A stretch of DNA of 64,000 nucleotides from Deltaproteobacteria bacterium (GCA_016180845.1 JACPAK010000001.1:86836-150835); one strand, 5' to 3'. Positions 7,365 through 28,513 are shown, counted from the stretch's first letter. The notes: generated by a model not told the origin, from the sequence alone. Numbers and translations are program-made.

Positions 7365-8081
7365 ATGTCTAGCAGCTCGCTGATCAAAGCGATCACCGTC
7401 ACCTTCGGCACCAACATGCTGGCCGATCTCGCTTCGGACAGGGTCCTCCATCCAGGCTACAAACTCGATTACGGATTGCTCAATCCACTCCTCGGCCGCG
7501 ATATGTATGAGCCTTTTTGGGGAACACGTCTGCAGCACCTTGTCGGTATCGCAGGATCGTTGACTTTGACCGAACATGTTTCTTCATCTATTTTTAGCTT
7601 TTTCTTGAGAAAGGCAAAAATCCTCAAGGCAACGGAAGATATCTTCAAAATCCATAAAACTCCGCTCTCCTATCTACTCCATAATTTCATCTCAGTTTTT
7701 TTGGGAGTTTTTATCTACTGTTCCCTCGATGCCCTCTTCAATCCCTTGTATAAGAAAGAAGGAGAGCGGATGGAAACATGGGAAAAAACACTCTTGCCGA
7801 CTGTTGCTGGAACCCCGTGGGCCCTTATCGAACCGGTACTCGGCTACGGTCTCAAAAAGGCATTCACCCCATGGGCTTGGCTTATACCTCATGCCAGTTT
7901 GACACTGAGACAAAAAACCAGTCTTTGGGTTTCTGATCTCTTGATCCCCGATATCGCCATCTATGGAACGATCAAGGGGTTTGGATGGCACGAATACGCC
8001 GATTACGGCCTGACCGATAGCGAGTTAAAATTAAACAGGATCTATTTCGAACGGGCGAAGCCAAAAACGATTCTTTACTAA
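7365..8081 (+). CDS. hypothetical protein
   Basis: 238-aa ORF sitting directly upstream of the Ehr-like operon. No recognisable motifs. Confidence 0.4.
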   Translation: MSSSSLIKAITVTFGTNMLADLASDRVLHPGYKLDYGLLNPLLGRDMYEPFWGTRLQHLVGIAGSLTLTEHVSSSIFSFFLRKAKILKATEDIFKIHKTPLSYLLHNFISVFLGVFIYCSLDALFNPLYKKEGERMETWEKTLLPTVAGTPWALIEPVLGYGLKKAFTPWAWLIPHASLTLRQKTSLWVSDLLIPDIAIYGTIKGFGWHEYADYGLTDSELKLNRIYFERAKPKTILY

Positions 8082-8142
8082 CCGCGATATTCCAAAGGCG
8101 AGTGCGGCCCCGGCAATTCCGGCAAAAAAATCCTTCCATTCA

Positions 8143-8171
8143 TTGATAAATCAAATCAAAAGTGCTTAGTA
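8143..8171 (+). promoter_or_regulatory. candidate sigma70-type promoter (TTGATA-N17-TTAGTA) upstream of the Ehr-like operon
   Basis: Hexamers read directly: TTGATA at 8143-8148, a 17-nt spacer, then TTAGTA at 8166-8171, about 25 nt before the first ATG at 8197. Confidence 0.25.
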
Positions 8172-8196
8172 GATTGAATTCATAGGCTTGGACACC

Positions 8197-10176
8197 ATGA
8201 ACTACCTCATTTTTTCTTTGGGAATACTGCTCGTTTCCTTCTGTCTTACCTTTCTGGTCCAGACAGAAAAACAGAAGAGGTTTCTCTCCTGTGGGGGAGT
8301 CATTGCCGGATCCGTTCTCGGGATTATTCCAGCCTTGCAGGTCCTCACGAGTGGTATCCCTTCCAGGGTAACGAGCCTCGCCTCGCCGATCCCGGGGCTT
8401 GAGGTTTCACTCGGACTCGACCCTTTGAGCGCCTTTTTTCTCGTCGGCATTTACGGTCTTTCCGGTCTCGTTGGAATTTACAGCTGGGGTTATCTGAAAG
8501 ATCGACGGAGGCTCCTCCGAACGGCACCCTTCTTCCCGCTTCTCGTTGCCACCATGGCGACAGTCGTCGCCGCTCGCGACGGCTTCTTTTTTCTGATCGC
8601 CTGGGAGGTGATGTCACTCGCCTCCTTTTTTCTGGTCACTGCCGAGCACGAAAATAAAGAGGTCCGTCACGCGGGATGGATTTACCTTGTGGCGACACAC
8701 CTTGCGACTGCCTTTCTGATGGCCTTCTTCACCCTCCTTTATAAGAAGACAGGGACATTCTCTTTCGAGGCCTTTTCCCAGATCGGAGCTGTCTCACCAA
8801 CCCTCGCCAGTCTTCTTTTCGTTTTGGCCCTTGTCGGGTTTGGAACCAAGGCGGGGATTTTCCCCCTCCACGTCTGGCTTCCTTACGCCCATCCGGCAGC
8901 CCCAAGTTATATCTCGGCGCTGATGAGTGGGGTGATGATCAAGACAGGAATTTATGGGATCCTCCGCGCGCTGACCTTTTTGGGAGTGCCACCCCTCTGG
9001 TGGGGCGAACTCCTGGTCGGCCTCGGAATCCTGTCGGCGGTCCTCGGGGTCACCTACGCCCTGATACAACACGACCTGAAACAGCTCCTCGCCTATTCCA
9101 GTGTCGAAAACATCGGGATCATCGTAACGGGAATCGGGTTGGGATTGATCGGACTTTCTCGAAACCAACCAACCCTCACGCTTCTCGGATTCGGCGGATC
9201 CCTTTTTCACGTCTGGAACCATGCTATTTTCAAGGGGCTCCTCTTTCTGGGGGCTGGAAACGTCGTGCGTGTCGTCCACAGCAGGGCGATCGATCAGCTC
9301 GGAGGGCTCTTCAAAAACATGCCGTTCACGGGGGCAACCTTTTTTATCGCCTCGGCAGCGATCTGCGGACTTCCACCTCTGAACGGTTTTATCAGCGAAT
9401 GGTTGATCTACGTCGGTTTCCTGAAGGGTGTCACCTGGAGCTTCGGCCCATCCCTTTTCTTTTCTATTGCGGGAATCATTGGAATCGCCTTTTCCGGAGG
9501 ACTCGCGATCGCCTGCTTCACAAAGGTTGTGGGGGTTGTCTTTTTGGGAGAACCGCGTAGCGAACAGGCGGCAATCCCCTACGAGGTCTCTCGTCTCATT
9601 CTGGCCCCGATGGTGGTACTCGCCTTCCTCTGTCTTGCGTTCGGTCTCTATCCCCAGATCATCTGGTCCGCTGTTTTTTTTACCGTCAAATCCTTGCTGC
9701 CTTATGGGGCGATAGCGGAGCAAAATAGAATCCTCACCTCACTCTCCAGTATAAACGTCATTTTTTGGTTCGGTCTCGTTTTCTTTCTCGCCCTGGGCCT
9801 TTTAACTCAACTTATTGTCGGCAAGAGGCCAATTCGTCGCGCGGTTACCTGGGACTGTGGCTATGCCTCTCCAACACAACGGATGCAATACAGCGCCTCT
9901 TCTTTTGTAGAATCATTGGGGGTTTTTTTCGCCCCTCTCCTCAAACCCCAGACAGATCTCAAGAAACCTGCCGGTCTCTTCCCGCAACCAGGAAGCTTCG
10001 CAGAACAGGCAGAGGATCTCGCCGAACGGCGCCTCTTCAGGCCGCTCTTCAAGAGGACCGATCAATCCTTTTTATTTGTCCGAAAGATGCAGCAAGGGAA
10101 GATCCAGGCTTACCTTGCCCTCATCTTTGTGACCATCCTGGCCCTTCTGTTATGGGAGGTATGGTTTGGAATTTAA
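8197..10176 (+). CDS. NuoL/HyfB/HycC-like antiporter-type membrane subunit (complex I / group-4 hydrogenase family)
   Basis: About 660 aa and polytopic. Carries the conserved segment GFGTKAGIFPLHVWLPYAHPAAPSYISALMSGVMIKTGIYGILR typical of NuoL/M/N and Mrp antiporter subunits. An alternative TTG start lies at 8188. Confidence 0.8.
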   Translation: MNYLIFSLGILLVSFCLTFLVQTEKQKRFLSCGGVIAGSVLGIIPALQVLTSGIPSRVTSLASPIPGLEVSLGLDPLSAFFLVGIYGLSGLVGIYSWGYLKDRRRLLRTAPFFPLLVATMATVVAARDGFFFLIAWEVMSLASFFLVTAEHENKEVRHAGWIYLVATHLATAFLMAFFTLLYKKTGTFSFEAFSQIGAVSPTLASLLFVLALVGFGTKAGIFPLHVWLPYAHPAAPSYISALMSGVMIKTGIYGILRALTFLGVPPLWWGELLVGLGILSAVLGVTYALIQHDLKQLLAYSSVENIGIIVTGIGLGLIGLSRNQPTLTLLGFGGSLFHVWNHAIFKGLLFLGAGNVVRVVHSRAIDQLGGLFKNMPFTGATFFIASAAICGLPPLNGFISEWLIYVGFLKGVTWSFGPSLFFSIAGIIGIAFSGGLAIACFTKVVGVVFLGEPRSEQAAIPYEVSRLILAPMVVLAFLCLAFGLYPQIIWSAVFFTVKSLLPYGAIAEQNRILTSLSSINVIFWFGLVFFLALGLLTQLIVGKRPIRRAVTWDCGYASPTQRMQYSASSFVESLGVFFAPLLKPQTDLKKPAGLFPQPGSFAEQAEDLAERRLFRPLFKRTDQSFLFVRKMQQGKIQAYLALIFVTILALLLWEVWFGI

Positions 10177-11089
10177 CGTCCCATCACTCGTGCTCCATCT
10201 CGTTTTGATCGTCACGACCCCACCGTTTTTCCTCGGGGTAATCGCAAAGACGAAGGCCTTTCTGGCTGGCAGAAAGGGACCTCCCCTGCTCCAGATCTAC
10301 TACGATCTCTTAAGACTCTTTCGAAAAGGGACAGTCTACAGCCGAAGCTCCTCGATACTCCTTCGTCTTGCCCCCGTCATGATCGTCGCATCCATTTTTT
10401 CGAGCAGCCTCCTGGTCCCCTTGCTCAAGACCGCACCGATTCGGTTTGAGGGGGATCTGATCCTCTTCGCTTACCTCCTGGGGCTCGTCCGATTTATGAC
10501 GATCCTCGCCGCCATGGACGTCGGTTCCAGTTTTGAGGGGATGGGGGCCAGCCGCGAGGCGAGTCTGGGGGCCCTCACAGAACTCGCCTTCTTCCTCGGG
10601 CTGGTAGCCCTTTCGGCGATGACCCGCTCGACCTCACTCACTGCGATCTTCGAGTGGGAGGGGGGACATCCTTTTTGGAACCCGGCCCTTCTAATCCTCT
10701 TCGCCACTTTTTCCCTGATCCTCTTGACCGAAAATTCCCGGATGCCGATCGATGATCCGACAACACATCTGGAACTCACGATGATCCATGAGGTGATGAT
10801 CCTCGATTACAGCGGACCGGATCTGGCGCTTATCCTCTACGGAGCCTCCATGAAACTCTTCCTCTTCATGGCGTTTACCTCCTCGCTTCTCTGGCCTCCC
10901 ACGACGGCTAACATCTGGATGGGGGGCGGTTGGTTGATCTTGAAGGTTACAGGGATGTCGATCGCGATCGGTCTGATCGAATCGGCGAATGCCCGCCTGC
11001 GCCTGATCAAGATCCCGCAACTCCTGGTCGCGAACTTTGTCGCCGCAGCGCTCGGTCTCGCGATTATCCTTATCGGAAGGGGGGTATAG
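10166..11089 (+). CDS. NuoH/HycD/HyfC-like membrane subunit
   Basis: 307 aa. The N-terminus (LAGRKGPPLLQIYYDLLRLFRKG) matches HycD/NuoH. TTG start with GGGAGG 6 nt upstream. Overlaps the preceding gene by 11 nt. Confidence 0.75.
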   Translation: MEFNVPSLVLHLVLIVTTPPFFLGVIAKTKAFLAGRKGPPLLQIYYDLLRLFRKGTVYSRSSSILLRLAPVMIVASIFSSSLLVPLLKTAPIRFEGDLILFAYLLGLVRFMTILAAMDVGSSFEGMGASREASLGALTELAFFLGLVALSAMTRSTSLTAIFEWEGGHPFWNPALLILFATFSLILLTENSRMPIDDPTTHLELTMIHEVMILDYSGPDLALILYGASMKLFLFMAFTSSLLWPPTTANIWMGGGWLILKVTGMSIAIGLIESANARLRLIKIPQLLVANFVAAALGLAIILIGRGV

Positions 11090-11092
11090 ATT

Positions 11093-11725
11093 ATGGAATG
11101 GTTCTTGACCGGCATTATCGTGACAACCTTCTTCATCCTGGGGGCGTCACGGCTCGCCCCCTGTATCCGGATCGCAGCGGTCCAAGGGGCGATGCTCTCC
11201 GTCCTGCCGATCCTGGCCCGCGGGTCGGTGACCGATCCGCACAGTTTGGGGATGTTTTTTGGAACCTTTCTCATCAAGGCGATCCTCATTCCGATCCTGC
11301 TTTTTCGCTCCCTGCGACAGTCCAAGATTCGTGAGGAAATGGAACCGACCGTCAGTCGTCACCTGTCGCTCCTGGCAGGCGGTCTCGTGGTGGTTCTCTC
11401 CTTTTCGTGGCAACTCCCTAACCTTCCCGGCTCTCACTCTCCCCTCATCGTCCCGACAGCGCTGGCGATGGTCCTTTTGGGGTTTCTGCTTCTCGTGACG
11501 CGCCGTAAGGCGGTGACACAGGTGATCGGATTTCTGGTCCTCGAAAATGGTGTCTTTCTCTTCGGAATGACACTCGCCACCGAATTCCCGATAACGGTGG
11601 AGATGGGGGTTTTGCTTGATCTCCTTGTCGGCGTGTTCGTCATGGGAATCATGATCAATCATATCAATCGAACCTTTGATCACATCGACACAACATTGCT
11701 CGCTTCACTGAGGGAGACCGAATGA
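11093..11725 (+). CDS. HyfE-like small membrane subunit of group-4 hydrogenase-type complexes
   Basis: 210 aa with about 6 TM helices. Position and size match HyfE (E. coli 216 aa). Confidence 0.55.
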   Translation: MEWFLTGIIVTTFFILGASRLAPCIRIAAVQGAMLSVLPILARGSVTDPHSLGMFFGTFLIKAILIPILLFRSLRQSKIREEMEPTVSRHLSLLAGGLVVVLSFSWQLPNLPGSHSPLIVPTALAMVLLGFLLLVTRRKAVTQVIGFLVLENGVFLFGMTLATEFPITVEMGVLLDLLVGVFVMGIMINHINRTFDHIDTTLLASLRETE

Positions 11726-13164
11726 TACCGATCCTCCTTGTGGCGCTGCCAACCTTTTTGGGAATCGTCACCCTCCTGATTCGAGGGGAAAAAAGACGAA
11801 AGATTCGTCGGCTCTTTCTCATCCTGGGAGCTCTTGCGCATGCGGCAGGAACAGGTTGGCTCCATATCCGGCCGGAGGAAAAATCCCTTATGGGACTCAT
11901 CGAGGTCGATCCCTTGGGGCTCCTCTTCCTGACGATCACAAGCCTCCTTTTCCTTATCTCGTCGATCTATAGTCTCGGTTATTTCCAACATGAACGTACG
12001 AAATATACCGAGGAGGGGGTGAGCCACCTCTATGTCCCTTGCATGCTCTTCTTCCTCGCCTCCATGACACTCACAACCTTCGCTTCCCAATTGGGAATCC
12101 TCTGGATTGCCATCGAGGCCACCACTATCGCCTCGGCCCCCCTCATCTATTACCATCACCATCACCAGGCGCTCGAGGCAGCCTGGAAGTATCTCCTCAT
12201 CTGTTCCGTCGGGATCGCGATCGCCCTCCTCGGAATCTTTTTTGTCGCTGCTTCAGCGAAGGGAAACGTCGCCGATCTCTCACTCTCGACGATGATCGCT
12301 TCAGCAAGATCTCTCGACGCGCGCTGGTTTCGGGCTGGCTTTCTGCTGATCCTTGTCGGGTTTGGAACAAAGATGGGCTTGGCACCGCTGCATAGCTGGC
12401 TCCCGGACGCCCATAGCGAGGCCCCCTCTCCTGTCTCGGCCCTCTTGTCAGGTGCGCTTCTGAACTGCGCCTTCCTGGGGATCCTTCGATTCTATCAAAT
12501 CCTGATTGCGGCGGGACTTGCCGATTTCGCTGGCAGGGCGCTGACACTCCTGGGGCTCTCCTCGCTCTTCATCGCGACCGTCTTCATCACCGGACAACGG
12601 GATTATAAACGGCTGCTCGCCTACTCCAGTGTGGAACACATGGGAATTATGGCATTGGGCCTCGGCTGGGGGGCCAAATTCGGGGTGCTGCTCCATGCGG
12701 TCAATCACTCCCTCACGAAGGGGCTTTTGTTTCTTGTCGCCGGCCAGATCCTGATCGCCTATCGAACAAAAAATTGCTCCGAAGTTCAGGGACTCATCAG
12801 GACAATCCCAGCAACAGGACTTCTCTTTCTTGTTGGAATCTTCGCCATCATCGGTTCCCCCCCCTTCGGTCCCTTCGTCAGCGAATTTTTGATCCTGCGA
12901 GAAGGCCTCGGCAGAGGGCATCCGGTCGGCTCTTTTCTCTACCTCCTCTTCTTAGGCGTCATTTTTATCTCAATGTCACGCATCGTCCTTGGAATGATCC
13001 AAGGGGAAAAACGGGATATCCTGCCGGGAGAAGCCCCTTCGCGACTCATGGTCTTCCCGCCGGTCGTGCTTGCCGTCGCTGTCTTCCTCTTCGGCCTCTA
13101 TATTCCGGAGTCAATGGTTTCCTTCCTCAAAACCGCCTCTCAACTGATTGGAGGGGGTTCATGA
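11722..13164 (+). CDS. NuoM/NuoN/HyfF-like antiporter-type membrane subunit
   Basis: 480 aa. Conserved GFGTKMGLAPLHSWLPDAHSEAPSPVSALLSG segment. The stop overlaps the next gene's start in an ATGA. Confidence 0.8.
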   Translation: MIPILLVALPTFLGIVTLLIRGEKRRKIRRLFLILGALAHAAGTGWLHIRPEEKSLMGLIEVDPLGLLFLTITSLLFLISSIYSLGYFQHERTKYTEEGVSHLYVPCMLFFLASMTLTTFASQLGILWIAIEATTIASAPLIYYHHHHQALEAAWKYLLICSVGIAIALLGIFFVAASAKGNVADLSLSTMIASARSLDARWFRAGFLLILVGFGTKMGLAPLHSWLPDAHSEAPSPVSALLSGALLNCAFLGILRFYQILIAAGLADFAGRALTLLGLSSLFIATVFITGQRDYKRLLAYSSVEHMGIMALGLGWGAKFGVLLHAVNHSLTKGLLFLVAGQILIAYRTKNCSEVQGLIRTIPATGLLFLVGIFAIIGSPPFGPFVSEFLILREGLGRGHPVGSFLYLLFLGVIFISMSRIVLGMIQGEKRDILPGEAPSRLMVFPPVVLAVAVFLFGLYIPESMVSFLKTASQLIGGGS

Positions 13165-14618
13165 CTTTTTCAGCGACCAAGAATGCCTCACCTGTTTTGA
13201 TTTCCGAGATTCCGATTCTCACCCTTGAAGACTGGCGGCTCTGGATCCTGGAGACCTGTCAGAAAAACGGTGGCCGCATCGTTTCGCTTTTGGCCCATCA
13301 GGAAAAAGAAACCGTTCGGATCTATGGAATCCTCGGGATTGATTCCAAAGGAGAATTACAGATTGCCGGTCTCGATCTTCAAAACAAAAAGTATCCCTCT
13401 CTGACACCTGATCTCCCTGAGGCGCATCTGTTTGAGAGAGAGCTTTTTGAACAGAGCGGCATCGTCCCTGAAGGACACCCCTGGCTGAAACCGGTCCGAC
13501 AGCTTGCCAACTATCCCTTTTATCAAATGGCCGGGGAGGAGATTCATGAAGTGGCAGTAGGACCGGTCCATGCCGGGATTATTGAACCGGGACATTTCCG
13601 GTTCCAATGCCATGGTGAGAAGGTCTTTTATCTGGAAATCCAGCTAGGCTATCAACACCGTGGGCTAGAACAACTCATCGTCACGTCAAACCCAAGTCGC
13701 CGTGCGGTCCTCGCCGAATCGATCGCCGGCGATACCGTGATCGGTCATGGACTTGGCTTTTGCCACGCCATCGAAGGACTTTCCCAAGCAGAGGTCCCAC
13801 AAAGAGCGAAGGGACTCCGCGCTATCGCGCTGGAACTTGAAAGACTCGCGAACCATTCGGGAGATCTCGGGGCCTTGGCCGCCGATATCGGTTTTCTGCC
13901 AGCAAGCGCCTGGTTCGGGAGGCTTCGGGGGGAATTTTTAAATCTCTTGATGGAGCTCACAGGAAATCGGTTTGGCCGATCTTTCTTGAGGCCGGGCGGG
14001 GTGCTTTTTGATCTCACAAACGAGATGATCATTGATTTCAAGAAACGGATCCTGCATGCCGCCTCGGAGATGAAGGAGATCTCTGACCTTTTCTTCAACG
14101 CCTCGTCAGTTCTTGCGCGACTGGAACATACAGGAGTCGTCGCAACAGAGACCGCAAGGGGCTTGGGAATGGTGGGGCCTGCGGCACGCGCGAGCAATCT
14201 CGTACGTGACGTGCGCCACGACTATCCCACAGAATTCTACCGCCTTTTCCCCATCCCTCCGATGAGACTGACCACAGGGGACGTCTCTGCTCGTGCACGC
14301 ATCCGATCATTAGAAAGCAAAAGATCCTCTGAATTTATCCTGAAACAGCTCGACACGCTCACGTCGGACAAGATCCTTGGCACCTGCGAAGAACCAAGGG
14401 GCTCATCCCTGGTCGTGAGTCTCGTCGAGGGGTGGAGGGGAGAGATCGCGCATATCGTCCTGACCGATGAGAGGGGAGAGATCATGAGGTACAAGATCGT
14501 CGATCCCTCATTTCATAACTGGATGGCATTGGCCTTGGCGATGCGGGACGGACAGATCTCCGATTTCCCGCTCTGCAATAAGAGTTTTAATTTGTCGTAC
14601 GCTGGACATGATTTGTAG
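13161..14618 (+). CDS. fused NuoC-NuoD / HycE-like 'large subunit' lacking NiFe-binding cysteines (Ehr-type)
   Basis: 485 aa. N-terminal NuoC-like part, then a NuoD/HycE-like part (EPGHFRF, GYQHRGLEQL). Where HycE has RVCGICGFAH this protein has ESIAGDTVIGHG, and where HycE has DPCYSCTDR it has DPSFHNW. RBS GGAGGGGG precedes the ATG. Confidence 0.8.
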   Translation: MTFSATKNASPVLISEIPILTLEDWRLWILETCQKNGGRIVSLLAHQEKETVRIYGILGIDSKGELQIAGLDLQNKKYPSLTPDLPEAHLFERELFEQSGIVPEGHPWLKPVRQLANYPFYQMAGEEIHEVAVGPVHAGIIEPGHFRFQCHGEKVFYLEIQLGYQHRGLEQLIVTSNPSRRAVLAESIAGDTVIGHGLGFCHAIEGLSQAEVPQRAKGLRAIALELERLANHSGDLGALAADIGFLPASAWFGRLRGEFLNLLMELTGNRFGRSFLRPGGVLFDLTNEMIIDFKKRILHAASEMKEISDLFFNASSVLARLEHTGVVATETARGLGMVGPAARASNLVRDVRHDYPTEFYRLFPIPPMRLTTGDVSARARIRSLESKRSSEFILKQLDTLTSDKILGTCEEPRGSSLVVSLVEGWRGEIAHIVLTDERGEIMRYKIVDPSFHNWMALALAMRDGQISDFPLCNKSFNLSYAGHDL

Positions 14619-14629
14619 AGGTAGCATCT

Positions 14630-15325
14630 ATGTGGGAAATTCTTAAAAATCGTTGGCGGCAGGGATACCGAACACTGAAATTTCCGGAAGAAGCGCTTCT
14701 TCCCGAACGTTTTCGGGGAAGGCCAATCCTCACAGATGGGAACCCACTCGATCTCGGGAAATGCCTCTTCTCGCCGGATGATAATGTGGTCTACTCTCGT
14801 GATTACCGGATGGCTGTCCGCAAAAGGGAAGATTTGATTTTGAAGGGAGAGGAAATCAAGTTGGCAACAGCATTGGATAAGAAAATGAGGAAACTCTTTG
14901 GACGATCGCTGAAGCTCCGGGCGGTTTGTGCCGGAAGCTGTAACGGGTGTGATCTCGAGCTTCAGGCATTGAATAACGTCGTCTTCGACCTTTCACGATT
15001 CGGGATACAATTTGTCGCATCGCCCCGTCATGCCGATGGCCTTGTCGTCACAGGACCTGTGACCGAAAATATGAAACTCGCCCTCAAAAAAACCTACGAG
15101 GCAGTTCCCGATCCGAAGATCGTGATTGCGGTAGGCGCCTGCGCTATCAGTGGTGGACCTTTCGAGGGAAGTCCCGAGGTGAATAACGGCGCTGACAAGA
15201 TACTCCCCGTCGATCTCTACATCCCTGGTTGCCCGCCGCATCCACTCACGATTCTTGATGGACTCTTGAGACTTTTGGGGAGGATCGAAGCCAATTCTTC
15301 CAGATTGACCGCTTGCAAGGCCTGA
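14630..15325 (+). CDS. NuoB/HycG-like small subunit with [4Fe-4S] ligands
   Basis: 231 aa. VCAGSCNGCDLEL aligns to HycG VDCGGCNGCEIEI. GACAISGG and PGCPPHP are conserved. About 100-aa N-terminal extension. Confidence 0.8.
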   Translation: MWEILKNRWRQGYRTLKFPEEALLPERFRGRPILTDGNPLDLGKCLFSPDDNVVYSRDYRMAVRKREDLILKGEEIKLATALDKKMRKLFGRSLKLRAVCAGSCNGCDLELQALNNVVFDLSRFGIQFVASPRHADGLVVTGPVTENMKLALKKTYEAVPDPKIVIAVGACAISGGPFEGSPEVNNGADKILPVDLYIPGCPPHPLTILDGLLRLLGRIEANSSRLTACKA

Positions 15326-17398: not shown

Positions 17399-18553
17399 TC
17401 ATCTCCCTCGATAAAGGGCCGCAACTGGAATGCAGCGAATGTCTTCGATACTGTAATAATCTTCCCCCAAATAGAACAGGTATCCGCTCCTATTCTCTTT
17501 ATCCATACCAACAAACTCCTTGAGGTTGTTAATGTCTTTTCTGGAAGGGCGAAGGGTTGATTTTATTTCCACAGCCTTGAGTTTCTGATTTTCTACAAGA
17601 ATAAGGTCAATTTCAAAACCGGAGTTATTCTTATAAAAAAACAGCTGATCCGTTTTATAAAACCCAAGTTTCCGCCTTTTCTCGATTTCAGAGATAACGA
17701 AATTTTCCACAATCTGTCCCCTGCTACACTGCGTACCCAAAGCGGAGATCATCCCTGTATCACAATAATAGGATTTTGATCCCTTAACGTATCTCTTGGA
17801 AGGACCATGCTGATATCCTGCCAAAGTAAAACCCAAACCGGATTGATAGAGACTCTGTAAATATTTCTTTGCTGTAATGTGGTTTAAATTGGCCTCATGT
17901 CTGAAATTTTCAATCTGTGTAATGTTGCCGATGGAAAGGGCGTAATGATTCAACATGGCCCGCAGGCCCGTAACATCCTGTATATTGGAAAGTAGACTTA
18001 AGTCTCTGGTGAAGTAGGTATTGCGATAATTCTCCAATATTTCTTTTTTCTCTGTTTCATCTTTGGCCGAGACGACTTCTGGAAAACCACCATACTTTAA
18101 AAATGATTCTAATTTCCGCTGTGCTTGAAGGATTTGAGGGAGGGAAGCCTGATCTTCAAAAATGGAATGTGTTGGCTCACCGAATTCTTCCCCCCAACAA
18201 CAAGGGGGTAATTCCAAAATTTGTATGCGCCCCGCCAACGAGTCTGCCGATGCATCCAACAATCCGATTCGACTGGAACCGCTCATCAAAACAGTAGCCA
18301 CCTGTTCGTCGATGGAAAATTTTGCCGCAATCGTTAGCCTCGGAACACGCTGTATCTCATCGAGGATTACCTTGGGGTTACCTTCCAAAAGGGCCTTGGG
18401 GTCTTTCTCAGCCAAGGCGAGTACGTCCAGATCATCCAATGTCAAGTATTTGAAATCAGGGAAGTTTTTCTTTAAATACATGCTCTTTCCTGCCCTTCTA
18501 GGGCCTAAAATTAAAGCGCTTTTAGCAGGTTTTCTAAGCCATCTATCAAACAT
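17399..18553 (-). CDS. AAA-family ATPase (Walker A GPRRAGKS; AAA_14 + DUF4143-type architecture)
   Basis: 384 aa with a P-loop near the N-terminus and a C-terminal region typical of DUF4143 ATPases. Markedly AT-richer than flanking DNA. Lies 66 nt after the tmRNA 3' end. Confidence 0.65.
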   Translation of the reverse strand: MFDRWLRKPAKSALILGPRRAGKSMYLKKNFPDFKYLTLDDLDVLALAEKDPKALLEGNPKVILDEIQRVPRLTIAAKFSIDEQVATVLMSGSSRIGLLDASADSLAGRIQILELPPCCWGEEFGEPTHSIFEDQASLPQILQAQRKLESFLKYGGFPEVVSAKDETEKKEILENYRNTYFTRDLSLLSNIQDVTGLRAMLNHYALSIGNITQIENFRHEANLNHITAKKYLQSLYQSGLGFTLAGYQHGPSKRYVKGSKSYYCDTGMISALGTQCSRGQIVENFVISEIEKRRKLGFYKTDQLFFYKNNSGFEIDLILVENQKLKAVEIKSTLRPSRKDINNLKEFVGMDKENRSGYLFYLGEDYYSIEDIRCIPVAALYRGR

Positions 18554-18624: not shown

Positions 18625-21126
18625 TTAAGGAGCTTTTCCCATCCCAACCGACAGACACGACCCGGTCAGTTCCTCAATGAGATTGATCTTCAGATCATCG
18701 CCGATATTGCGAATCCGGAGTTGAGGGGTCGCATCCGGTTGGACTTCGATCGCCTCAAGTCGAAGTCGGAGCCGCTGACGGTCGAAGCCACAGGCAGCCG
18801 CCTCGCGGGGAAGGAGCGTCGGCTCTGATTCCTCGGCATCGATAAAAATCCTTTCAACAACCACACCACCCGCCTCACTGGGGGCCCTATCTTCAACACT
18901 CTCGACCGTCATCTGAATCGGCATCTTTTTCCGGACCCGGAAAGGAATCTTCACCGGTGGATCCGATAACGAAATCGCCGCCTGACCTGTCAACTCCCCT
19001 GAAAGAGACATGTGGTCAAAGAAGGCCTCCATCAATTCCAGAGAACCATCCTCGGCCGGTTGAATCTTCAGACGATGCCCCATAAAACGGGCATTCGTAA
19101 TATTTAAACGAAGATCGTTCCATCGCACAAAGGCCTGGTGTGTGGAAAAAACAGCCCCACCCGGATGTTCTGCGAGAATTTCAACCTCTCGACGTTGTGG
19201 GACGATCTGAACCGAGCCTTCGACATCCAGATCCGCTTCGGCAACCCTCGTTGAGAAAATTCCCTCACGACTCCTGTTACTGACCCGTAGACCAAGGGTT
19301 GGTAAATCGGCATGCAGCTTGGCATTGCTAATAGAAATACGAGTATGATTCGGATTTTTCTCATCGGAACCTATGGAGAGAGGCGCGATGCCGGCAAGGG
19401 GACGAAATTTAATCTGCCCTAATCCCTGAATAGCGCCATCTGGAAAGTGATACGAGACAACCCCATCCATCTGGCTCGTGATGATCCCCTCGAAGCGGGG
19501 TCTCCCATTCACAACCTGAAAGTGGACATCGGCCAGACCGGCCCCTTCGGGGATTTCATTCAACCACTTATGGTCTCCCTCGAATTGCCGTCGTTTTGCG
19601 ACAGTATGCAATGAAACCCCATGCCCATCATATTTGAGCTCGCCGGTTCGAAGCTGTTCAATCGAGACATCAGGGGTCAGACCATCAAGTCGGACGGTAA
19701 AATTCTTCACCTCACCACCTTGAGGGAGCTCCAGTTTGGAAAGGACCTTTCCGTTCGACCTCGAAATCTCTTCCAATTTTAATCCATCGTTATGATTCCA
19801 GCTAAAAGCAGCGGCAAGTTCCCTCGTATTCCGCGGATTCAGGGAAACCGCCACCTTCAGAGGGGTTGGGGTACGAGCGGTATTGCTGGCCCGAATCAGT
19901 CGCTCCGGATGGACGTATTCAATCGTCTTCAGACCGGCGATCTCGACTGTCGGTGAAAAAAGCCCACCGCGAATCGCAATCCGATGCCCCCCTGGCGGGA
20001 CCTTCCCCGTGAATTCAAGTCGCAACTTTCTCACCTTTTTTGGATCCATCCTTTTTTGAAGATCGGTCTCCAGATCGACCTCGATCGTGCGATTCGAAAA
20101 ATCACCGGTGATCTCGATGGTCGCTTGTTGCCAACGAGGGATTGTTCCCAAAAATTCTGAGTTGAGCTTTTTCTCTGTTTTGGCGGGTACATGAGCTGAA
20201 CTCTGAAATCCCCCCTTGCCCCCCTTTGACAAAGGGGGGTTGGGGGGATTTTCTTTCTCACTCCCCCCCAAAATCATCCCGACAAGCTGATGAAGATGCT
20301 CGGGGACGCGATAAACAGGAAGTCCCCTCTTCTCAAAATCCCTTTTCGTGATCCCACCGGCATCGAAGACCATCTTTCCCCCCTCCACCGTAAGATCAAA
20401 AAAGAGATAGTTCGCCGTGACGAAAACGGCCCTATCTGGCGTCTCCTGTTCCAATTTTTCACGATAGGACTCCACAAGAAGACCGGCCAACGGAAGGGCC
20501 GAAACCACCTGCAACCAGAGCGGGAGGATTTTTTTATCCTCATCAACCATCTCGACCGCTTTCCCACGTACAGAGACCCATGGGCCAACAATCGGAATAC
20601 CTGTAAAAAATTTTAGCCACGGCTTGAGCGGGATCGGACCGACCGGTGGTTTTGAGACAAGGCGAATCTCTCTGATTTCTCCTCCCTCCCCAACCTCAGC
20701 GACAAACTTGAGTTGGAAGGGGGACTGGGGGAGATCGGCCTCCAAGGGAAGTTGGACCTCGGCACGGATCTTCAAGTTCGGAACTGGCGAAGCTTCTCCA
20801 GATGCGGTTTCGAAAAGTCCTCGCACAAGTCGTTCGACAAAGGCGCTTCGCGGTTCCTCAACAACTGCTTTGTCCCGAAATCGCGCAGCGGAAACAGCAA
20901 CCGGGGGTCTTTCGCAATAAGGTTTTGAGGGAGTTGCTTGGCAATAATAATCTCTCTGACCGATCCCAAAGTGTTCCCTCGGAAGGTCCGAGAACCTGTC
21001 TGAGACCCACCTTGAAACCGAACGATTTTCCGCAGGGAAGCCTTGGACCGGAGGAAAATCGTTCGATGGTGCCGGGCGAGTTTCGCAGGACCTGGAGAGA
21101 GGACACGAGGGATCGGTCGGCCTCAT
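18625..21126 (-). CDS. large hypothetical protein (833 aa), beta-rich, no recognised domain
   Basis: Long uninterrupted ORF whose start overlaps the upstream gene's stop in an ATGA. An internal hydrophobic segment ILPLWLQVVSALPLAGLLV is present. Two in-frame palindromic repeat insertions. Confidence 0.5.
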   Translation of the reverse strand: MRPTDPSCPLSRSCETRPAPSNDFPPVQGFPAENRSVSRWVSDRFSDLPREHFGIGQRDYYCQATPSKPYCERPPVAVSAARFRDKAVVEEPRSAFVERLVRGLFETASGEASPVPNLKIRAEVQLPLEADLPQSPFQLKFVAEVGEGGEIREIRLVSKPPVGPIPLKPWLKFFTGIPIVGPWVSVRGKAVEMVDEDKKILPLWLQVVSALPLAGLLVESYREKLEQETPDRAVFVTANYLFFDLTVEGGKMVFDAGGITKRDFEKRGLPVYRVPEHLHQLVGMILGGSEKENPPNPPLSKGGKGGFQSSAHVPAKTEKKLNSEFLGTIPRWQQATIEITGDFSNRTIEVDLETDLQKRMDPKKVRKLRLEFTGKVPPGGHRIAIRGGLFSPTVEIAGLKTIEYVHPERLIRASNTARTPTPLKVAVSLNPRNTRELAAAFSWNHNDGLKLEEISRSNGKVLSKLELPQGGEVKNFTVRLDGLTPDVSIEQLRTGELKYDGHGVSLHTVAKRRQFEGDHKWLNEIPEGAGLADVHFQVVNGRPRFEGIITSQMDGVVSYHFPDGAIQGLGQIKFRPLAGIAPLSIGSDEKNPNHTRISISNAKLHADLPTLGLRVSNRSREGIFSTRVAEADLDVEGSVQIVPQRREVEILAEHPGGAVFSTHQAFVRWNDLRLNITNARFMGHRLKIQPAEDGSLELMEAFFDHMSLSGELTGQAAISLSDPPVKIPFRVRKKMPIQMTVESVEDRAPSEAGGVVVERIFIDAEESEPTLLPREAAACGFDRQRLRLRLEAIEVQPDATPQLRIRNIGDDLKINLIEELTGSCLSVGMGKAP
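20206..20252. repeat. family-1 palindromic repeat (aaatccccccTTGcccccctttgaCaaaggggggTTGgggggatttt), copy 1, intragenic and in frame
   Basis: Read directly. A near-identical copy sits at 63710-63760. Here it encodes ENPPNPPLSKGGKGG within the 833-aa ORF. Confidence 0.7.
21018..21066. repeat. family-2 hairpin repeat (13-14-bp arms ccgaacgattttcc / ggaaaatcgttcg around a 21-nt spacer), copy 1, intragenic and in frame
   Basis: Perfect inverted arms at 21019-21031 and 21053-21065. A second copy at 62277-62325 has the spacer in reverse-complement orientation. Here it encodes NDFPPVQGFPAENRS. Confidence 0.7.
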
Positions 21127-23948
21127 TGTTTATTCTCCAATGGCTTCCTTAACAACGACTCTCGAGTCAGTGGCAGCTTACTTCCACACCTCTTCAGATA
21201 AAACCACTTCCCATCTTTCTGAACCAATTCGACCTTATCTCCCAAAAGTGAAGCGGCCTGAGGATTCACAAAACCGGAGAAACAGAGACCACCGATCGTG
21301 TCTGTTCGTAACTGGCCCCCACGGATCCTTGCCGGCTCATTCAAAAGAACCTCAATGCCTCGAGCAAGAGTAAATTCTCTTCTCTTTTTCCCTATCCAGC
21401 TCCTAAACCCAACCTCCCCATGAACAAAACCGCTTGGATTTTTTTGAGGACGAATGGATCTCCTCTTTAAATCGAAGGGGATAGCGAGACCCCCTTCAAT
21501 CTGAGTCGTCACAACATACTGATCGGGTGATTCTCGATTGTAAATCCACAATTTGAGGGATGATGCCGCCGGTCTTGACAAAAAGCTCACGGCACCATTT
21601 CGGACAGAGAATTGCCCACGGTAATCCAACGCTCCCTGGCCCCAGAAAGGATGCCTCGTTGTTGGTTCAATCCCAAAAAAGGCCCTAAAACCCTCTTCGT
21701 GCCATGGGATCAGCAATTTGCCATGAAAATTGACCTGATCTCCGACAGATCCTTTCGCACAAAAGAGCTCCGCTCTTCTATTGTTCCCCTCCCAAACACA
21801 GTTGAGATCACCCACAACCCTCTCTCCTCCCCTGTAAATGTTAGAGGGGGTACGAACCGTCCGGAAGGATGAGTCTTGCTTCACCCCATTGAGAATCTCC
21901 GTCTTCCCCTCCGGCTTAAATTTCACCTCTCCCTCCGTAAATCCACGAAAGGTCCAGTCAGAAAAAATCTGTTCGAAGGCTGGGACAATTTTTAACCGAA
22001 TGGTTTCAAAATCACTCGAACCAAAGAGGGCCGTCGCCAAACTCACCACGGGCGAAGCGGCTGGCTGATTATTGAGTGACAAATGACCATCCCAGGTCAT
22101 CCGACAGGAGTTTCCTTCAGGCTCGGCCCAAAGCTGCCCACCGGAATCAAAAACCAATTCCTGTTTGAATAACGGGACCGACTCTGCCTGGAGATTAACG
22201 AGGAGGTGAGGCCCATGCCCCGGCTCCGGAGGGACCCCGCTAAGTGACGCCCGAATCCCACGAACTTCATAAGGAGTCCCCCCCTCTGAGGTCACTCTCA
22301 GATTGGCCTCTGCCTCCGCCTTCAACGTGATGAGGTTCAAAGGCGATCGGACCCGCACCACGAGGTCCGAAAAATCAAGATTGTTCTTCGGTCCATGCGA
22401 AAAGGCGAACCCCCGAAGCTCAATCTCCTCGCTCATCGGCCCCTCGACCCGATCAGGGTCGTAGTCAAAAGAGACATAACCGTCTTCCACCAGACCGCCC
22501 GTCATCGTTTCGCCTACCTGAAATTGAATCGGTCCCCCATCTGCCGATCCAATCGCAAGCTCATCGATTTCGAGCCAACTCCTCTGTAAAACAGGTTTGT
22601 CTCCAGACAGGTCCAACTGAACAGAGCTATTCAGGCGACCCGACGAGCGAAGAGATCCCAACTGAGAGGTTGGAATATTTTCCACAACATACTCGAGATT
22701 ATCGAAATAGATTTCGGCAAGATTCGGATGTCGCAGGACAATCTCGATCTCGCCTCGAAGGGCCAACGGTACCGATGTGGGAAGGGTCACATCAATATCC
22801 GACAGGACGATGGAGGTTGTTTTATCCGCTGCATTGTACGACCAATGCAGATCAAGCGTCCCTTCCGCATTTGGAATCAGGAGACTCGCCGGAAGTTTTG
22901 GGAAATTGGCGTAAGAATCCCCCTTGATCCCCTCAAAATCAAACTTGAGGAAACGTCCGGATTTTAAGGTTTCCATCAATCTCTGCCAATCAAGATGAAG
23001 GTAGCTCCTCCCGACAAGCTCATGGTTTGGTGGAGGTCTCGAATCAACCGTAATCTGTAAATCATCGAGGGTCCCGATGGGACCCTGGACCCATTTGGAA
23101 CGCTCGCCAAACCACTCCTCAATGACCTGTCTCAAGCCTGACGAGTCCTGATCGACCCAGCTTCCCATGAGCGCCTTCAAAAATCGGCGACCAAAAGATT
23201 CTTTGTAAACGGCATTTTGCCTCTGTACTGAAAATGGCTGGGGATCGCTCCTCTCTGCTGGATCAGGATAGGCGGTCAAAGCCCTCGTCCTCGGTATCGG
23301 TGTCAAAAGAGATCGCCCGAGACCGAACAAATTCAACCCCTCGGTCACCTTGACTGTCGGGAGTCCCCGATGTGCGAGATGCGGAACAACGAGTCGCGCC
23401 TGATCTGTTTCAGAAAACCTGCTGACAAAGATATCTGAAAATCGTCTCTTCCTCCTCGTCAGCCCCGCCACATCAAAACCGTAAAAAACCTCAAGCCCAT
23501 CGGTCCAAACATCCCCATCGATCTTGAACGTGTCATATCGAGACCGAGCGTTGAAGGCGAGCTCCGCCCCCTCATCCCAAGTCACATCTCCCGTCCAGCT
23601 ATCCCTTTCGACCCTTCCCTCATGAAATCTTGCCCTCACGTAATAATCGTGATTCCCAAAAAAATGATAGGTGATCGGTAAGGATCTCCGAAAGCTCATC
23701 GGCTCTCGGCGGTCGAGAAGTTTCTCCACTATCCCTTGTTTCGTTGGATAGGCAAAACCGGCTTGCTCAGCAGCTACTGCAAAGAGATCAAGCAGACTCC
23801 TGTTCGGTGTCTCAGGAGGAGCTGCGTCAAAGGCAGAACAAAAAAGGTCTTCGAAACGAGAAGGTGCGGGGGAACCATTGACCGTAGCTGTCACACCCAG
23901 ACAATCGGGTGCGATCGGAAGGAGGTTGCTACCGAAACCGAAGCACAA
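21123..23948 (-). CDS. large hypothetical protein (941 aa), no recognised domain (isolated GNHD tetrapeptide only)
   Basis: Long ORF whose start overlaps the 3' end of the MFS gene. ATGA coupling to the 833-aa gene downstream. Confidence 0.5.
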   Translation of the reverse strand: MCFGFGSNLLPIAPDCLGVTATVNGSPAPSRFEDLFCSAFDAAPPETPNRSLLDLFAVAAEQAGFAYPTKQGIVEKLLDRREPMSFRRSLPITYHFFGNHDYYVRARFHEGRVERDSWTGDVTWDEGAELAFNARSRYDTFKIDGDVWTDGLEVFYGFDVAGLTRRKRRFSDIFVSRFSETDQARLVVPHLAHRGLPTVKVTEGLNLFGLGRSLLTPIPRTRALTAYPDPAERSDPQPFSVQRQNAVYKESFGRRFLKALMGSWVDQDSSGLRQVIEEWFGERSKWVQGPIGTLDDLQITVDSRPPPNHELVGRSYLHLDWQRLMETLKSGRFLKFDFEGIKGDSYANFPKLPASLLIPNAEGTLDLHWSYNAADKTTSIVLSDIDVTLPTSVPLALRGEIEIVLRHPNLAEIYFDNLEYVVENIPTSQLGSLRSSGRLNSSVQLDLSGDKPVLQRSWLEIDELAIGSADGGPIQFQVGETMTGGLVEDGYVSFDYDPDRVEGPMSEEIELRGFAFSHGPKNNLDFSDLVVRVRSPLNLITLKAEAEANLRVTSEGGTPYEVRGIRASLSGVPPEPGHGPHLLVNLQAESVPLFKQELVFDSGGQLWAEPEGNSCRMTWDGHLSLNNQPAASPVVSLATALFGSSDFETIRLKIVPAFEQIFSDWTFRGFTEGEVKFKPEGKTEILNGVKQDSSFRTVRTPSNIYRGGERVVGDLNCVWEGNNRRAELFCAKGSVGDQVNFHGKLLIPWHEEGFRAFFGIEPTTRHPFWGQGALDYRGQFSVRNGAVSFLSRPAASSLKLWIYNRESPDQYVVTTQIEGGLAIPFDLKRRSIRPQKNPSGFVHGEVGFRSWIGKKRREFTLARGIEVLLNEPARIRGGQLRTDTIGGLCFSGFVNPQAASLLGDKVELVQKDGKWFYLKRCGSKLPLTRESLLRKPLENKQ

Positions 23949-26050: not shown

Positions 26051-27091
26051 AAGGATCTTTCGATTCATCGATGAGGTTGGGAATCGATCGATCTCCTCCG
26101 GATGAATCCATTGAGATTTCATTCGTGGAATTCGGCTCATTTGGCAGAGATAAGGGGTAATGACTAATCTCTTATTCAAAACAGAGTGCCGAATCGATCC
26201 CAAAGCACGAATCGGTCTGAAACCGAAATCCCTGACTAATCTCTCAGCCCCCCCCTCCACCATCGGAAATTCCCACATCTCTTTCAAGATCCCCTTCGCA
26301 GGCCTGCGAACCATGAGGAGAGAATCACCTTTTTGAATCAAGGCTGCCGTCATCGTGATCTTCTGAGCAGGAGCCCTTTTTGCCAATCGTGGATACAGAT
26401 CCTGTCTCCCCTTTTTACGCGCCTCACACTCATCGTAGACAGGGCAGACCAAACAGGCGGGTCGTCTCGGTGTACAAATTGTCGCACCGAGTTCCATGAG
26501 CGCCTGATTAAAATCGCCAACATCCCTATCGGGCAAAATCAGCGCGGCGAGACCCCAAAAGATCTTCTGGCCTGCAGGACTTTTGGGATCACTTCCGATC
26601 AAAAAGAGTCGTGACAGGACCCGAACCACATTCCCATCGACTACCGGGACCCTTTCCCCAAACGCGATCGAGGCAATCGCCCCGGCGGTGTAGCGACCGA
26701 TGCCGGGGAGTTGCTGCCAGTCTATTCGCTCGGACTGGCAAAGCCAGATCCTCGCTTGATTCGAGAGAGATACCGCTCTCCCTCGAGCTCCCATCTGATC
26801 AACGATTATCTTAGCTGCCTTCAATAGATTCCTCGCTCGCGAATAGTACCCGAGCCCCGACCAATACCGTAGCACCTCATCCTCTTCTGCCACTGCAAGT
26901 GATTCGATCGTCGGAAATCGTTTCAAAAATTTCTCATAATACGGAATCACCGTCTCGACCGTCGTCTGCTGGAGCATGATCTCCGAAACCCAGATCCGGT
27001 AAGGGTCTTTCGTCTTACGCCAAGGGAGGTCTCGTCGATGGGTGCGATACCAGTGAAGAAGCTTGTCTCCCCCGCGAAACTTTTTCATCAT
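26036..27091 (-). CDS. mutY: A/G-specific adenine DNA glycosylase MutY
   Basis: HhH-GPD motif LPGIGRYTAGAI, the FeS cluster cysteines CTPRRPACLVCPVYDEC, and a C-terminal NUDIX-like domain. Confidence 0.85.
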   Translation of the reverse strand: MMKKFRGGDKLLHWYRTHRRDLPWRKTKDPYRIWVSEIMLQQTTVETVIPYYEKFLKRFPTIESLAVAEEDEVLRYWSGLGYYSRARNLLKAAKIIVDQMGARGRAVSLSNQARIWLCQSERIDWQQLPGIGRYTAGAIASIAFGERVPVVDGNVVRVLSRLFLIGSDPKSPAGQKIFWGLAALILPDRDVGDFNQALMELGATICTPRRPACLVCPVYDECEARKKGRQDLYPRLAKRAPAQKITMTAALIQKGDSLLMVRRPAKGILKEMWEFPMVEGGAERLVRDFGFRPIRALGSIRHSVLNKRLVITPYLCQMSRIPRMKSQWIHPEEIDRFPTSSMNRKILSKLL

Positions 27092-28491: not shown

Positions 28492-28513
28492 CACGGTTTG
28501 AGAGTATACAGAC

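Follow-up and report, generated by a model that had tools for sequence, protein, structure and literature searches.

A deltaproteobacterial Ehr operon with a fused NuoI remnant predicted to lack both of its Fe-S clusters

We analyzed a six-gene operon located at positions 8188-15325 on the plus strand of a 64-kb stretch of DNA (hereafter the window; JACPAK010000001.1:86836-150835, part of an 805-kb contig) from the metagenome-assembled genome of an uncultured "Deltaproteobacteria bacterium". Positions are counted from the first letter of the window, and statements on genes absent from this genome hold for the window. As judged from sequence, the operon belongs to the known ehrABCDLS (energy-converting hydrogenase-related, Ehr) family and is not a new system. 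It very probably encodes an Ehr complex in which the NuoI homolog, fused to the NuoB-like small subunit, has been reduced to a remnant without [4Fe-4S] clusters. The overall explanation that we favor on balance would be a functional complex performing redox-coupled ion translocation with a single Fe-S cluster.

Ehr complexes are found in many phyla, with representatives in Geobacter, Nitrospira, and the methanotrophic Verrucomicrobia, and feature in discussions of how membrane hydrogenases are linked to complex I. The Geobacter cluster GSU0739-45 includes EhrA (NuoL-like), EhrC (HyfE-like), EhrL, and EhrS (PMC7894505), and the name ehrABCDLS was used in Methylacidiphilum (PMC6688271); the composition so named is also that of PMC7894505 and PMC3569383. 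Ehr loci of six genes were described in Desulfotomaculum ruminis (PMC3569383) and, as a syntenic set, in Sulfobacillus (PMC4378227), and the Ehr complex of comammox Nitrospira was placed near group 4f (PMC10284858). The function of Ehr is stated to be unknown (PMC7894505, PMC6349859, PMC10284858, PMC4378227, PMC6688271, PMC3569383), in line with a preliminary description of the window.

Operon composition and the remodeled large subunit

The six open reading frames (ORFs) are co-directional and tightly packed, with overlaps or gaps of -11, +3, -4, -4, and +11 nt at the consecutive junctions (Table 1). Their coordinates and subunit types, as given in the preliminary description, were confirmed by the ORFs and by Pfam and NCBIfam searches. 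The Pfam domains detected were Proton_antipo_M (1e-54) and Proton_antipo_N in EhrA, NADHdh (7e-35) in EhrB, which is alignable to HycD, HyfC, and NuoH, Oxidored_q2 (8e-6) in EhrC, Proton_antipo_M (6e-52) in EhrD, Complex1_30kDa (2e-6) and Complex1_49kDa (1e-34) in EhrL, and Oxidored_q6 (5e-33) in EhrS. The top NCBIfam models were the hydrogenase-4 subunits B, E-like, and F and NuoD/NuoB, including the hydrogenase-4 membrane subunit (HyfE) for EhrC (2.6e-22) and hydrogenase-4 subunit F for EhrD (2.8e-109, under the cut-off). All six best hits fell short of the curated cut-offs (for instance, 610 bits for EhrA against the 667 required for hydrogenase-4 subunit B), and only a NuoB subfamily model was passed by the small subunit. 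The six proteins are therefore relatives of the Hyf and Nuo subunits, not equivalogs.

The start of ehrL was assigned to the ATG at 13161, which has GGAGGGGG in front of it as its ribosome-binding site and overlaps the stop codon of the gene before it; the TTG at 12774, listed as the start of the fifth gene in a mechanical ORF list, was rejected in its favor. The EhrL protein is identical to MBI2082032.1, named "NADH-quinone oxidoreductase subunit C" by PGAP, and EhrS (MBI2082033.1) carries the PGAP name "NuoB", while JGI names for relatives are "Ni,Fe-hydrogenase III large/small subunit". These names are misleading for Ehr proteins, and the present analysis corrects this routine misannotation of the subunits as NuoC, NuoB, or Ni,Fe-hydrogenase III.

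At least 8000 candidate relatives of EhrL were obtained at E <= 1e-10, and at least 583 stretches of a one-genome-per-species collection encode one. The family comparisons reported here cover the best 80 loci of these stretches and 81 large subunits. The same six-gene order was observed in 64 of the 80 species loci, the remaining 16 being mostly interrupted by contig ends; together with the domain hits, this supports the Ehr-type composition proposed earlier. Loci were found in Omnitrophota, Verrucomicrobiota, Planctomycetota, Elusimicrobiota, Nitrospirota, Binatia, Acidobacteriota, and other phyla.

The closest solved relative of EhrL is HycE of the E. coli formate hydrogenlyase (FHL; 7z0s_E, 1.3e-41), followed by MbhL (2.8e-34), Nqo4 (1.2e-29), and MbsL (7e-19). 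The alignment with 7z0s_E and a MAFFT alignment that included HycE and HyfG both place A189, T192, S479, and G482 of EhrL at the Ni-Fe ligands C241, C244, C531, and C534 of HycE. Ni-Fe-ligating cysteines were thus looked for by proper alignment and not found, in agreement with the preliminary description, which had reported a large subunit free of them. None of the 81 Ehr large subunits holds more than one of the four cysteines. The ligands are replaced by two family motifs, E[ST].AGDT..GH and NKSFNLSY[CA]GHDL; residues E186, G190, D191, and H196 of the first and the pattern NKSFNLSY.GHDL of the second are at least 97% conserved across the family. The EhrL chain terminates at the residue aligned to R537 of HycE, which runs 32 residues further, and this C-terminal peptide of HycE is cleaved off by HycI in maturation. 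With all four Ni-Fe cysteines replaced by family-conserved residues and no maturation peptide, the complex is predicted not to be a hydrogenase, and the replacement of the cysteines would leave it unable to handle hydrogen. The quinone-ligating Tyr of NuoD (the Y87 region of Nqo4, "EYLGG") aligns to G190 of EhrL within the invariant AGDT motif, and therefore a complex-I-type quinone site is unsupported.

It could be argued that the operon encodes an ordinary group 4 [NiFe] hydrogenase of the FHL, Hyf, or Ech type, or else a complex I variant, whose missing parts lie elsewhere in the genome. HycE is the closest solved relative of EhrL, and the public names NuoC ("subunit C") and "NuoB" agree with such an assignment. 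We regard it as scarcely credible, since none of the four Ni-Fe cysteines and no C-terminal maturation peptide is present, hyp and hycI are absent from the window, a complex I variant would lack NuoA, J, E, F, and G genes as well as the quinone-ligating Tyr, and the six best NCBIfam hits are all under their cut-offs. The hydrogenase alternative was refuted by the large-subunit alignment.

The 81 large subunits are only ~50% identical, and 128 EhrL positions are at least 97% conserved among them. The conserved positions cluster in the beta1-beta2 loop (VGP.HAG.IEPGHFRFQC), in QHRG.E, in the two former Ni-Fe motifs, and in DPSFHNWM...ISDFP. The 55 operons whose NuoI domain is intact also served to define 143 EhrL positions of at least 96% invariance. 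Of these, 140 are held by the window EhrL and 136-142 by eight other operons with a cluster-less NuoI domain. Three EhrL cysteines have no counterpart in HycE and NuoD: C150 (window position 13608; at least 97% conserved), C472 (14574; at least 96% conserved in operons of the intact type), and the cysteine of SYCGHDL, which occurs in most of the family and is Ala in the window clade.

The ion-path residues of the membrane arm are likewise retained. In EhrA, residues E140, K221, K252, H341, H345, K349, and E404 have one-to-one counterparts in HyfB and NuoL/M/N, and in EhrD residues E132, K217, N248, H325, H329, K333, and E388 match HyfF position for position. Both proteins therefore keep the TM5 Glu, the TM7 Lys, the TM11 His/His/Lys, and the TM12 Glu, whereas the TM8 Lys is found only in EhrA and is replaced in EhrD by Asn, as in HyfF. 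Both membrane glutamates of the NuoK/HyfE type in EhrC (LENG and VEMG) are conserved with HyfE, and the conserved glutamates of EhrB are kept in the alignment. The TM5-6 loop of EhrB carries an Ehr-specific motif, EN.R[IM]P[VI]DDP.THLELTMIHEVM.LD, which is at least 95% conserved in 68 sequences. This loop (residues ~188-215, window positions 10700-10790) contains two histidines and stands in place of the HycD/NuoH coupling loop PFD.AEAEQEL..E...EYSG.

The cluster-less NuoI domain of EhrS

The EhrS protein has 84 additional residues ahead of its NuoB domain. Searched alone against the Protein Data Bank (PDB), this N-terminal domain gave E. coli NuoI as the top match (E = 0.06); the match is split into two collinear pieces, which lie ahead of the first Fe-S motif and behind the second. 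A profile of 103 relic N-domains aligned by hhalign to a HycF/HyfH/NuoI profile with a probability of 97.7% (E = 2.3e-12) over HycF residues 1-109; 29 and 7 residues are deleted at the two Cys motifs. The first Fe-S motif is deleted from the window protein, and CLFSPDDNVVY stands in place of the second. Of the eight cluster cysteines a single one persists, which neither the close relatives nor the subfamily as a whole conserve. The retained pieces are the N-terminal amphipathic helix with a long loop (MWEILKNRWRQGYRTLKFPEEALLPERFRGRP; pattern MW.ILKNR.KQGYRT..FP..PERFRGRP), the segment LDLGKCLF, and the post-cluster strand (YSRDYRMAVRKREDL; pattern YS.DYRMAV.KREDL). The N-terminal helix and loop were described in all solved members of the superfamily and are located at the membrane surface (PMC9474812). 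The C-terminal domain matched MbhJ (1e-38) and HycG (2e-34), and its NuoB-type cysteines C104, C107, C171, and C201 are present in all complete EhrS proteins except that of locus L061, which has Ser at the fourth position.

Most relatives have an EhrS of 250-260 aa in which a complete 2x[4Fe-4S] domain (C..GC..C...CP and CLFC..C...CP) is fused to the NuoB domain; such intact proteins have precomputed Fer4 Pfam matches, as in P0149, the EhrS protein of locus L001. The fusion of NuoC to NuoD and that of the 2x[4Fe-4S] NuoI homolog to NuoB were previously described for Ehr (PMC6349859, Supplementary Note 4). Because the Ehr homolog of NuoI is fused to NuoB, the absence of a separate nuoI/hycF gene is ordinary, and the unusual part is rather the loss of the NuoI clusters: both fusions are present in the window operon, but seven of the eight NuoI cluster cysteines are gone. 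The earlier claim of an operon without a NuoI/HycF subunit thus holds in that the window has no separate gene, whereas a NuoI remnant that has lost both cluster motifs is recognizable within EhrS. It is to be restated as a NuoI that is fused and stripped of its clusters.

Classification of EhrS over the 78 species loci with an EhrS gene, using cysteine states taken from the columns of a MAFFT alignment, revealed a graded series. All eight NuoI-type cysteines are kept in ~55-60 loci (~70-75%). In ~11 loci only the first three cysteines of motif 1 are missing, sometimes together with the last cysteine of motif 2; the cluster lost in this class is presumably the N6a-like one, farther from N2, if the 2x[4Fe-4S] fold is as in T. 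thermophilus Nqo9. Both NuoI clusters are lost in four loci (the window, L007, L084, and L086), and the whole NuoI core is deleted in three (L002, L003, and L005; 181-196 aa). The four states do not differ in how far the former active-site pocket, the site of the NuoB-type cluster, and the residues of the proton path are conserved. Ehr function hence tolerates removal of the NuoI clusters, leaving as hypotheses either a carrier that docks directly at the NuoB-type cluster or a function without electron input as its driving force. The series of a three-cluster wire, loss of the first-motif cluster, loss of both clusters, and deletion of the ferredoxin core offers a comparative handle on Ehr function.

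Among the 120 nearest 90%-identity EhrS clusters (63-88% identity), 103 are cluster-less and 14 intact. An alignment of 76 sequences showed that 8 positions of the cluster-less N-domains are invariant and ~20 others at least 90% conserved, suggesting that the remnant is a constrained structural element and not the product of a one-off decay. We tentatively suggest, while holding it doubtful, that the window operon represents a widespread and stable sub-lineage that has one Fe-S cluster and lacks a catalytic metal site, in which the pocket and the ion path are conserved as in the three-cluster relatives. If true, the conserved function of Ehr would be independent of long-range electron transfer, and Ehr would then be an ion machine that is independent of redox events or only gated by them, or else an enzyme whose NuoB-type cluster serves as both docking and catalytic site.

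The same data bear on the view of the operon as the decaying remains of a hydrogenase, without function. The losses of the Ni-Fe site and of two Fe-S clusters fit this view, and in Geobacter KN400 the Ehr complex was deemed non-functional, with mutations in ehr put down to relaxed selection (PMC13194489). We nevertheless hold it to be very improbable. The six ORFs are intact and tightly coupled, EhrL retains 140 of its 143 invariant positions, the ion-path residues that were checked are in place, the family extends across many phyla at ~50% identity with 128 near-invariant EhrL positions, and the relic N-domain is constrained across more than 100 clusters. The conservation of the EhrL positions and ion-path residues led us to reject a pseudogene.

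The N-domain appears to have an ancestry of its own. The window EhrA, B, C, D, and L proteins are 63-71% identical to those of L001, which has an intact EhrS, versus 42-55% to those of L084 and L086. The relation is reversed for EhrS, which is 84.5-85.9% identical to L084/L086 versus 68% to L001. A sliding-window comparison placed the switch in similarity at the ehrL/ehrS junction. The excess similarity is concentrated in the N-domain (window positions 14630-14900), with 82-86% amino acid identity to L084/L086 versus 63% to L001 and third-codon-position identities of 57-58% versus 41%; the NuoB domain is saturated in every comparison. Among the relic-type operons, L090 is the closest in EhrL (74.6%), yet its N-domain is only 73% identical. 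A co-assembly chimera was rejected, as the junction was reproduced at 100% identity in two independent single-run assemblies of groundwater samples (SRR12113431 and SRR12113424). The simplest reading of these similarities would be an old recombination that carried a cluster-less N-domain module between Ehr operons, and this domain appears to move between operons by recombination.

Proposed working of the complex and competing explanations

The retention of the NuoB cysteines, of 140 of the 143 EhrL positions, and of the checked membrane charges led us to infer a functional, ion-translocating complex with one cluster. In the ancestral and majority form of Ehr, a three-cluster wire would run from the cytoplasmic surface to the conserved non-Ni-Fe pocket at the EhrL/EhrS/EhrB junction. 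The event at this junction would be coupled to the movement of H+ or Na+ through the two antiporter-like subunits along the path EhrB-C-D-A, and would most likely be the oxidation or reduction of a single cluster by a diffusible one-electron carrier of the ferredoxin type. The carrier would dock at the outermost cluster and, in the window complex, directly at the NuoB-type cluster, in the position of the former NuoI core, from where the electrons would pass to an acceptor in the pocket that is neither H+ nor located in a canonical complex I quinone site. A redox-coupled mechanism with direct docking appears to us a serious possibility, rated somewhat below even.

The one NuoB-type [4Fe-4S] site of the window complex adjoins the strongly conserved, remodeled EhrL/EhrS/EhrB pocket. 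Along the series the wire would shorten from its outer end to the NuoB cluster alone, with the pocket and the ion path unchanged. As the pocket is the same in family members with anything from zero to three clusters in the NuoI region, the length of the wire should not be critical, and no fixed input module should be needed. The genomic context agrees with the latter point. In the window, Pfam scans of the 40 other proteins detected no hyp, hycI, Fdh, HycB, or NuoE/F/G, confirming the earlier statement that no electron-input or maturation genes are present, and no CxxCxxCxxxC motif was found in ORFs of at least 40 aa in six frames; NuoI/HycF and hyp genes, which the preliminary description would have taken as signs of an ordinary hydrogenase, are thus lacking within the 64 kb. 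No conserved Fdh, NuoEF, HycB, or hyp neighbor was found in the flanks of the 80 loci and of five further relic-type contigs, and all-against-all clustering of the flanks of the 80 loci yielded no conserved ferredoxin gene. With no fixed input module in cis, a diffusible carrier is the likeliest donor. In Ech, ferredoxin has its site on the NuoI homolog (Forzi 2005, cited in PMC3578206).

The missing clusters might instead be supplied in trans by a separate NuoI-like ferredoxin, possibly shared with complex I, that would use the remnant as a scaffold. Such a supply is attractive because the segments by which NuoI/HycF attaches to NuoB and the membrane arm are precisely those left in the remnant, and because our view is limited to 64 kb of the genome. 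Nevertheless, seven operons of the relic or deleted type lie on contigs that extend beyond ehrS (the window, L002, L003, L084, L086, L091, and L092), and no NuoI-like gene was found near any of them or among the listed genes of contig P0013. L002, L003, and L005 have lost even the post-cluster strand, leaving little to bind, and a domain that was split from its fusion yet kept elsewhere would be unparsimonious. We therefore consider supply in trans improbable.

The main rival to a redox-coupled complex is a redox-independent ion transporter, such as an Mrp-like antiporter or a system of pH or ion homeostasis, with the peripheral arm as a structural or regulatory cap and the remaining [4Fe-4S] cluster as a structural element or a redox or O2 sensor. 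In favor of such a transporter, Ehr can dispense with both NuoI clusters and with the Ni-Fe site, whereas its membrane-arm residues and the coupling loop of EhrB stay invariant, and no electron-input gene is conserved near any locus. The only conserved flank gene, encoding an HTH_17 + PTS_EIIA_2 (PtsN-like) protein, lies directly upstream of ehrA in 45 of the 80 loci; it is also present in L084 and L086, the nearest relic-type relatives, and absent from the window clade. Its product is likely a dedicated regulator that ties Ehr to PTS-Ntr signaling, a system connected to K+ and ion homeostasis. In addition, ehrABCDLS was listed among possible pH-homeostasis systems (PMC6688271). Four observations speak against this rival. 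The eight NuoI cysteines are kept in ~70-75% of the loci and the four NuoB cysteines in nearly all, which is hard to understand without electron transfer in the ancestral and majority form; the conservation of 128 EhrL positions near the former active site to at least 97% suggests chemistry or binding over a passive cap; Geobacter Ehr subunits were upregulated with formate as electron donor (PMC7894505); and Ehr has none of the Mrp-specific subunits MrpB, E, F, and G. Taken together, these points make a redox-independent transporter unlikely in our judgment.

Several points weigh against the redox-coupled complex that we favor. The loss of two clusters with the rest conserved suits a function free of electron input equally well. 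Substrate, donor, and ion translocation are not defined by any Ehr experiment. Direct docking of a carrier on the NuoB cluster would follow from the geometry of homologous structures, and the complex could be complemented in trans by a ferredoxin or NuoI-like protein from another part of the genome. With Gly190 at the place of the NuoD Tyr, a quinone acceptor is without positive support. An AlphaFold2 model of the window EhrS, built with the 76-sequence alignment, was unusable (mean pLDDT 41, pTM 0.32). Finally, no report of a cluster-less EhrS variant was found in the accessible Ehr literature, and the primary Ehr papers may already describe one.

Genomic neighborhood and comparison with known systems

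The ehr operon is followed by a convergent dus gene, and the 3' ends of the ehrS and dus ORFs share 109 nt (15217-15325), both C-terminal tails being non-conserved. Scans for promoters upstream of ehrA and for terminators downstream of ehrS gave nothing beyond shuffled expectation. The AT skew ranges from -0.12 to -0.19 across the ehr membrane-subunit genes (8001-14000), versus ~0 elsewhere, which fits the T-rich codons of hydrophobic residues. The 238-aa ORF at 7365-8081 (+), upstream of ehrA, was rejected as a part of the system, as it has no Pfam hit and is not conserved beside ehr elsewhere. Other ORFs without a Pfam match are 18625-21126 (-, 833 aa), 21123-23948 (-, 941 aa), 27088-28680 (-, 530 aa), and 34955-36607 (-, 550 aa). 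A 1006-aa protein encoded at 54278-57298 (-) combines a metallo-beta-lactamase domain with two C-terminal cyclic-nucleotide-binding domains. The remaining window proteins include an aminotransferase, aldehyde dehydrogenases, EamA, saccharopine dehydrogenase, Dus, Maf, DnaG, RpoD, thiolase/FadB-like proteins, ProA/ProB, Obg, RNase E/G, and others.

An AAA_14/DUF4143 ATPase gene is located within ~2 kb of ehr in the window (17399-18553, -), in L086 (10690-12003), and in L092 (2453-3616), the latter two being loci of the cluster-less type as well, which may be a coincidence or reflect a mobile or defence-type gene. In L092 (JACQMB010000072.1, 1-15946), the ehr operon is located between nuoG and nuoH of a complex I operon, on the opposite strand, and the AAA_14/DUF4143 gene lies between nuoH and nuoJ, with no nuoI there; within this 16-kb locus, NuoG alone contains a CxxCxxCxxxC motif.

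Table 1. Coordinates of the ehr genes, domains, and motifs in the window and of the putative regulator genes in related loci
Feature	Position	Strand	Description
ehrA	8188..10176	+	HyfB/NuoL-like antiporter-like subunit; 662 aa; TTG start, alternative ATG 8197
ehrB	10166..11089	+	NuoH/HycD-like subunit joining the two arms; 307 aa
ehrC	11093..11725	+	HyfE-like, C-terminal half NuoK-like; 210 aa
ehrD	11722..13164	+	HyfF/NuoN-like antiporter-like subunit; 480 aa
ehrL	13161..14618	+	Fused NuoC-NuoD large subunit without Ni-Fe site; 485 aa
Ni-Fe motif L1 remnant	13716..13748	+	EhrL E186-SIAGDTVIG-H196; C241 -> A189, C244 -> T192
Ni-Fe motif L2 remnant	14577..14615	+	EhrL N473-KSFNLSYAGHD-L485; C531 -> S479, C534 -> G482
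ehrS N-domain	14630..14881	+	aa 1-84; predicted cofactor-less remnant of NuoI/HycF 2x[4Fe-4S] domain
ehrS C-domain	14882..15325	+	NuoB/HycG-like; single remaining [4Fe-4S] site C104, C107, C171, C201
HTH_17 + PTS_EIIA_2 gene	L006:4191-5000		
HTH_17 + PTS_EIIA_2 gene	L014:4248-4952		
HTH_17 + PTS_EIIA_2 gene	L084:687-1394		
HTH_17 + PTS_EIIA_2 gene	L086:786-1493		

The Ehr prototype is GSU0739-45 of Geobacter sulfurreducens, and Ehr is known also from Margulisbacteria in addition to Methylacidiphilum, D. ruminis, Sulfobacillus, and comammox Nitrospira. Orthology between the window operon and GSU0739-45 is inferred from identical composition alone. With these systems the window operon shares the six subunit types and their order, the large subunit without Ni-Fe site, the NuoC-NuoD fusion, the NuoI-derived N-terminus of EhrS, and the absence of linked maturation or input genes. 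It is unlike typical Ehr in that the NuoI part is without both [4Fe-4S] sites and the HTH-EIIA regulator is missing upstream. A second EhrA-like gene, present in Geobacter, L084, and L086, is not found in the window operon.

Compared with the E. coli Hyf and Hyc systems, EhrA corresponds to HyfB, EhrB to HyfC/HycD, EhrC to HyfE, EhrD to HyfF, EhrL to HyfG/HycE, and EhrS to HyfH plus HyfI. In its predicted composition the operon is most like E. coli Hyf without HyfA and HyfD and with the C/D and I/B pairs fused. Hyf (HyfABCDEFGHI) and FHL-1 (HycBCDEFG and FdhF, PDB 7Z0S) have a Ni-Fe site and a peptide cleaved by HycI, whereas Ehr has neither; Ehr also lacks the HyfA/HycB ferredoxin, HyfD, and FdhF, its HyfH and HyfI parts are fused, and the HyfH part is cluster-less in the window. 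The coupling loop of EhrB has an invariant motif of its own, unlike that of E. coli Hyf/Hyc. The hallmarks of group 4 [NiFe] hydrogenases, namely the RxCGxCxxxH and DPCxxCxx[HR] motifs, the maturation peptide, and a two-cluster NuoI/HycF, are all missing from the window operon.

The MBS/Mbx complex of Pyrococcus (PDB 6U8Y) is likewise devoid of a Ni-Fe site and provides a precedent for a group-4-derived complex that keeps redox-coupled ion translocation. It differs in its 13 subunits, which include a complete Mrp module and a cluster-bearing NuoI-type subunit that is separate, and its large subunit is far more distant from EhrL than is HycE (7e-19 versus 1e-41). Structural work on MBS reportedly points to reduction of sulfane sulfur, with the chemistry taking place near the NuoB-type cluster; unlike MBS, EhrL is without evidence for sulfur chemistry.

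The likeness to complex I lies in the homologs of NuoB, C, D, and H, the NuoK-like and NuoL/N-like subunits, the N-terminal amphipathic helix of NuoI, and the L-shape that they imply. In contrast to complex I, the window Ehr is without NuoA, J, E, F, and G and the clusters N6a and N6b, has Gly in place of the NuoD Tyr, and has only two antiporter-like subunits. Compared with Mrp antiporters, Ehr lacks MrpB, E, F, and G and consists in its membrane part of two antiporter-like subunits and a NuoK-like half, and its intact ion-path Lys, Glu, and His residues are compatible with an antiporter-like mechanism.

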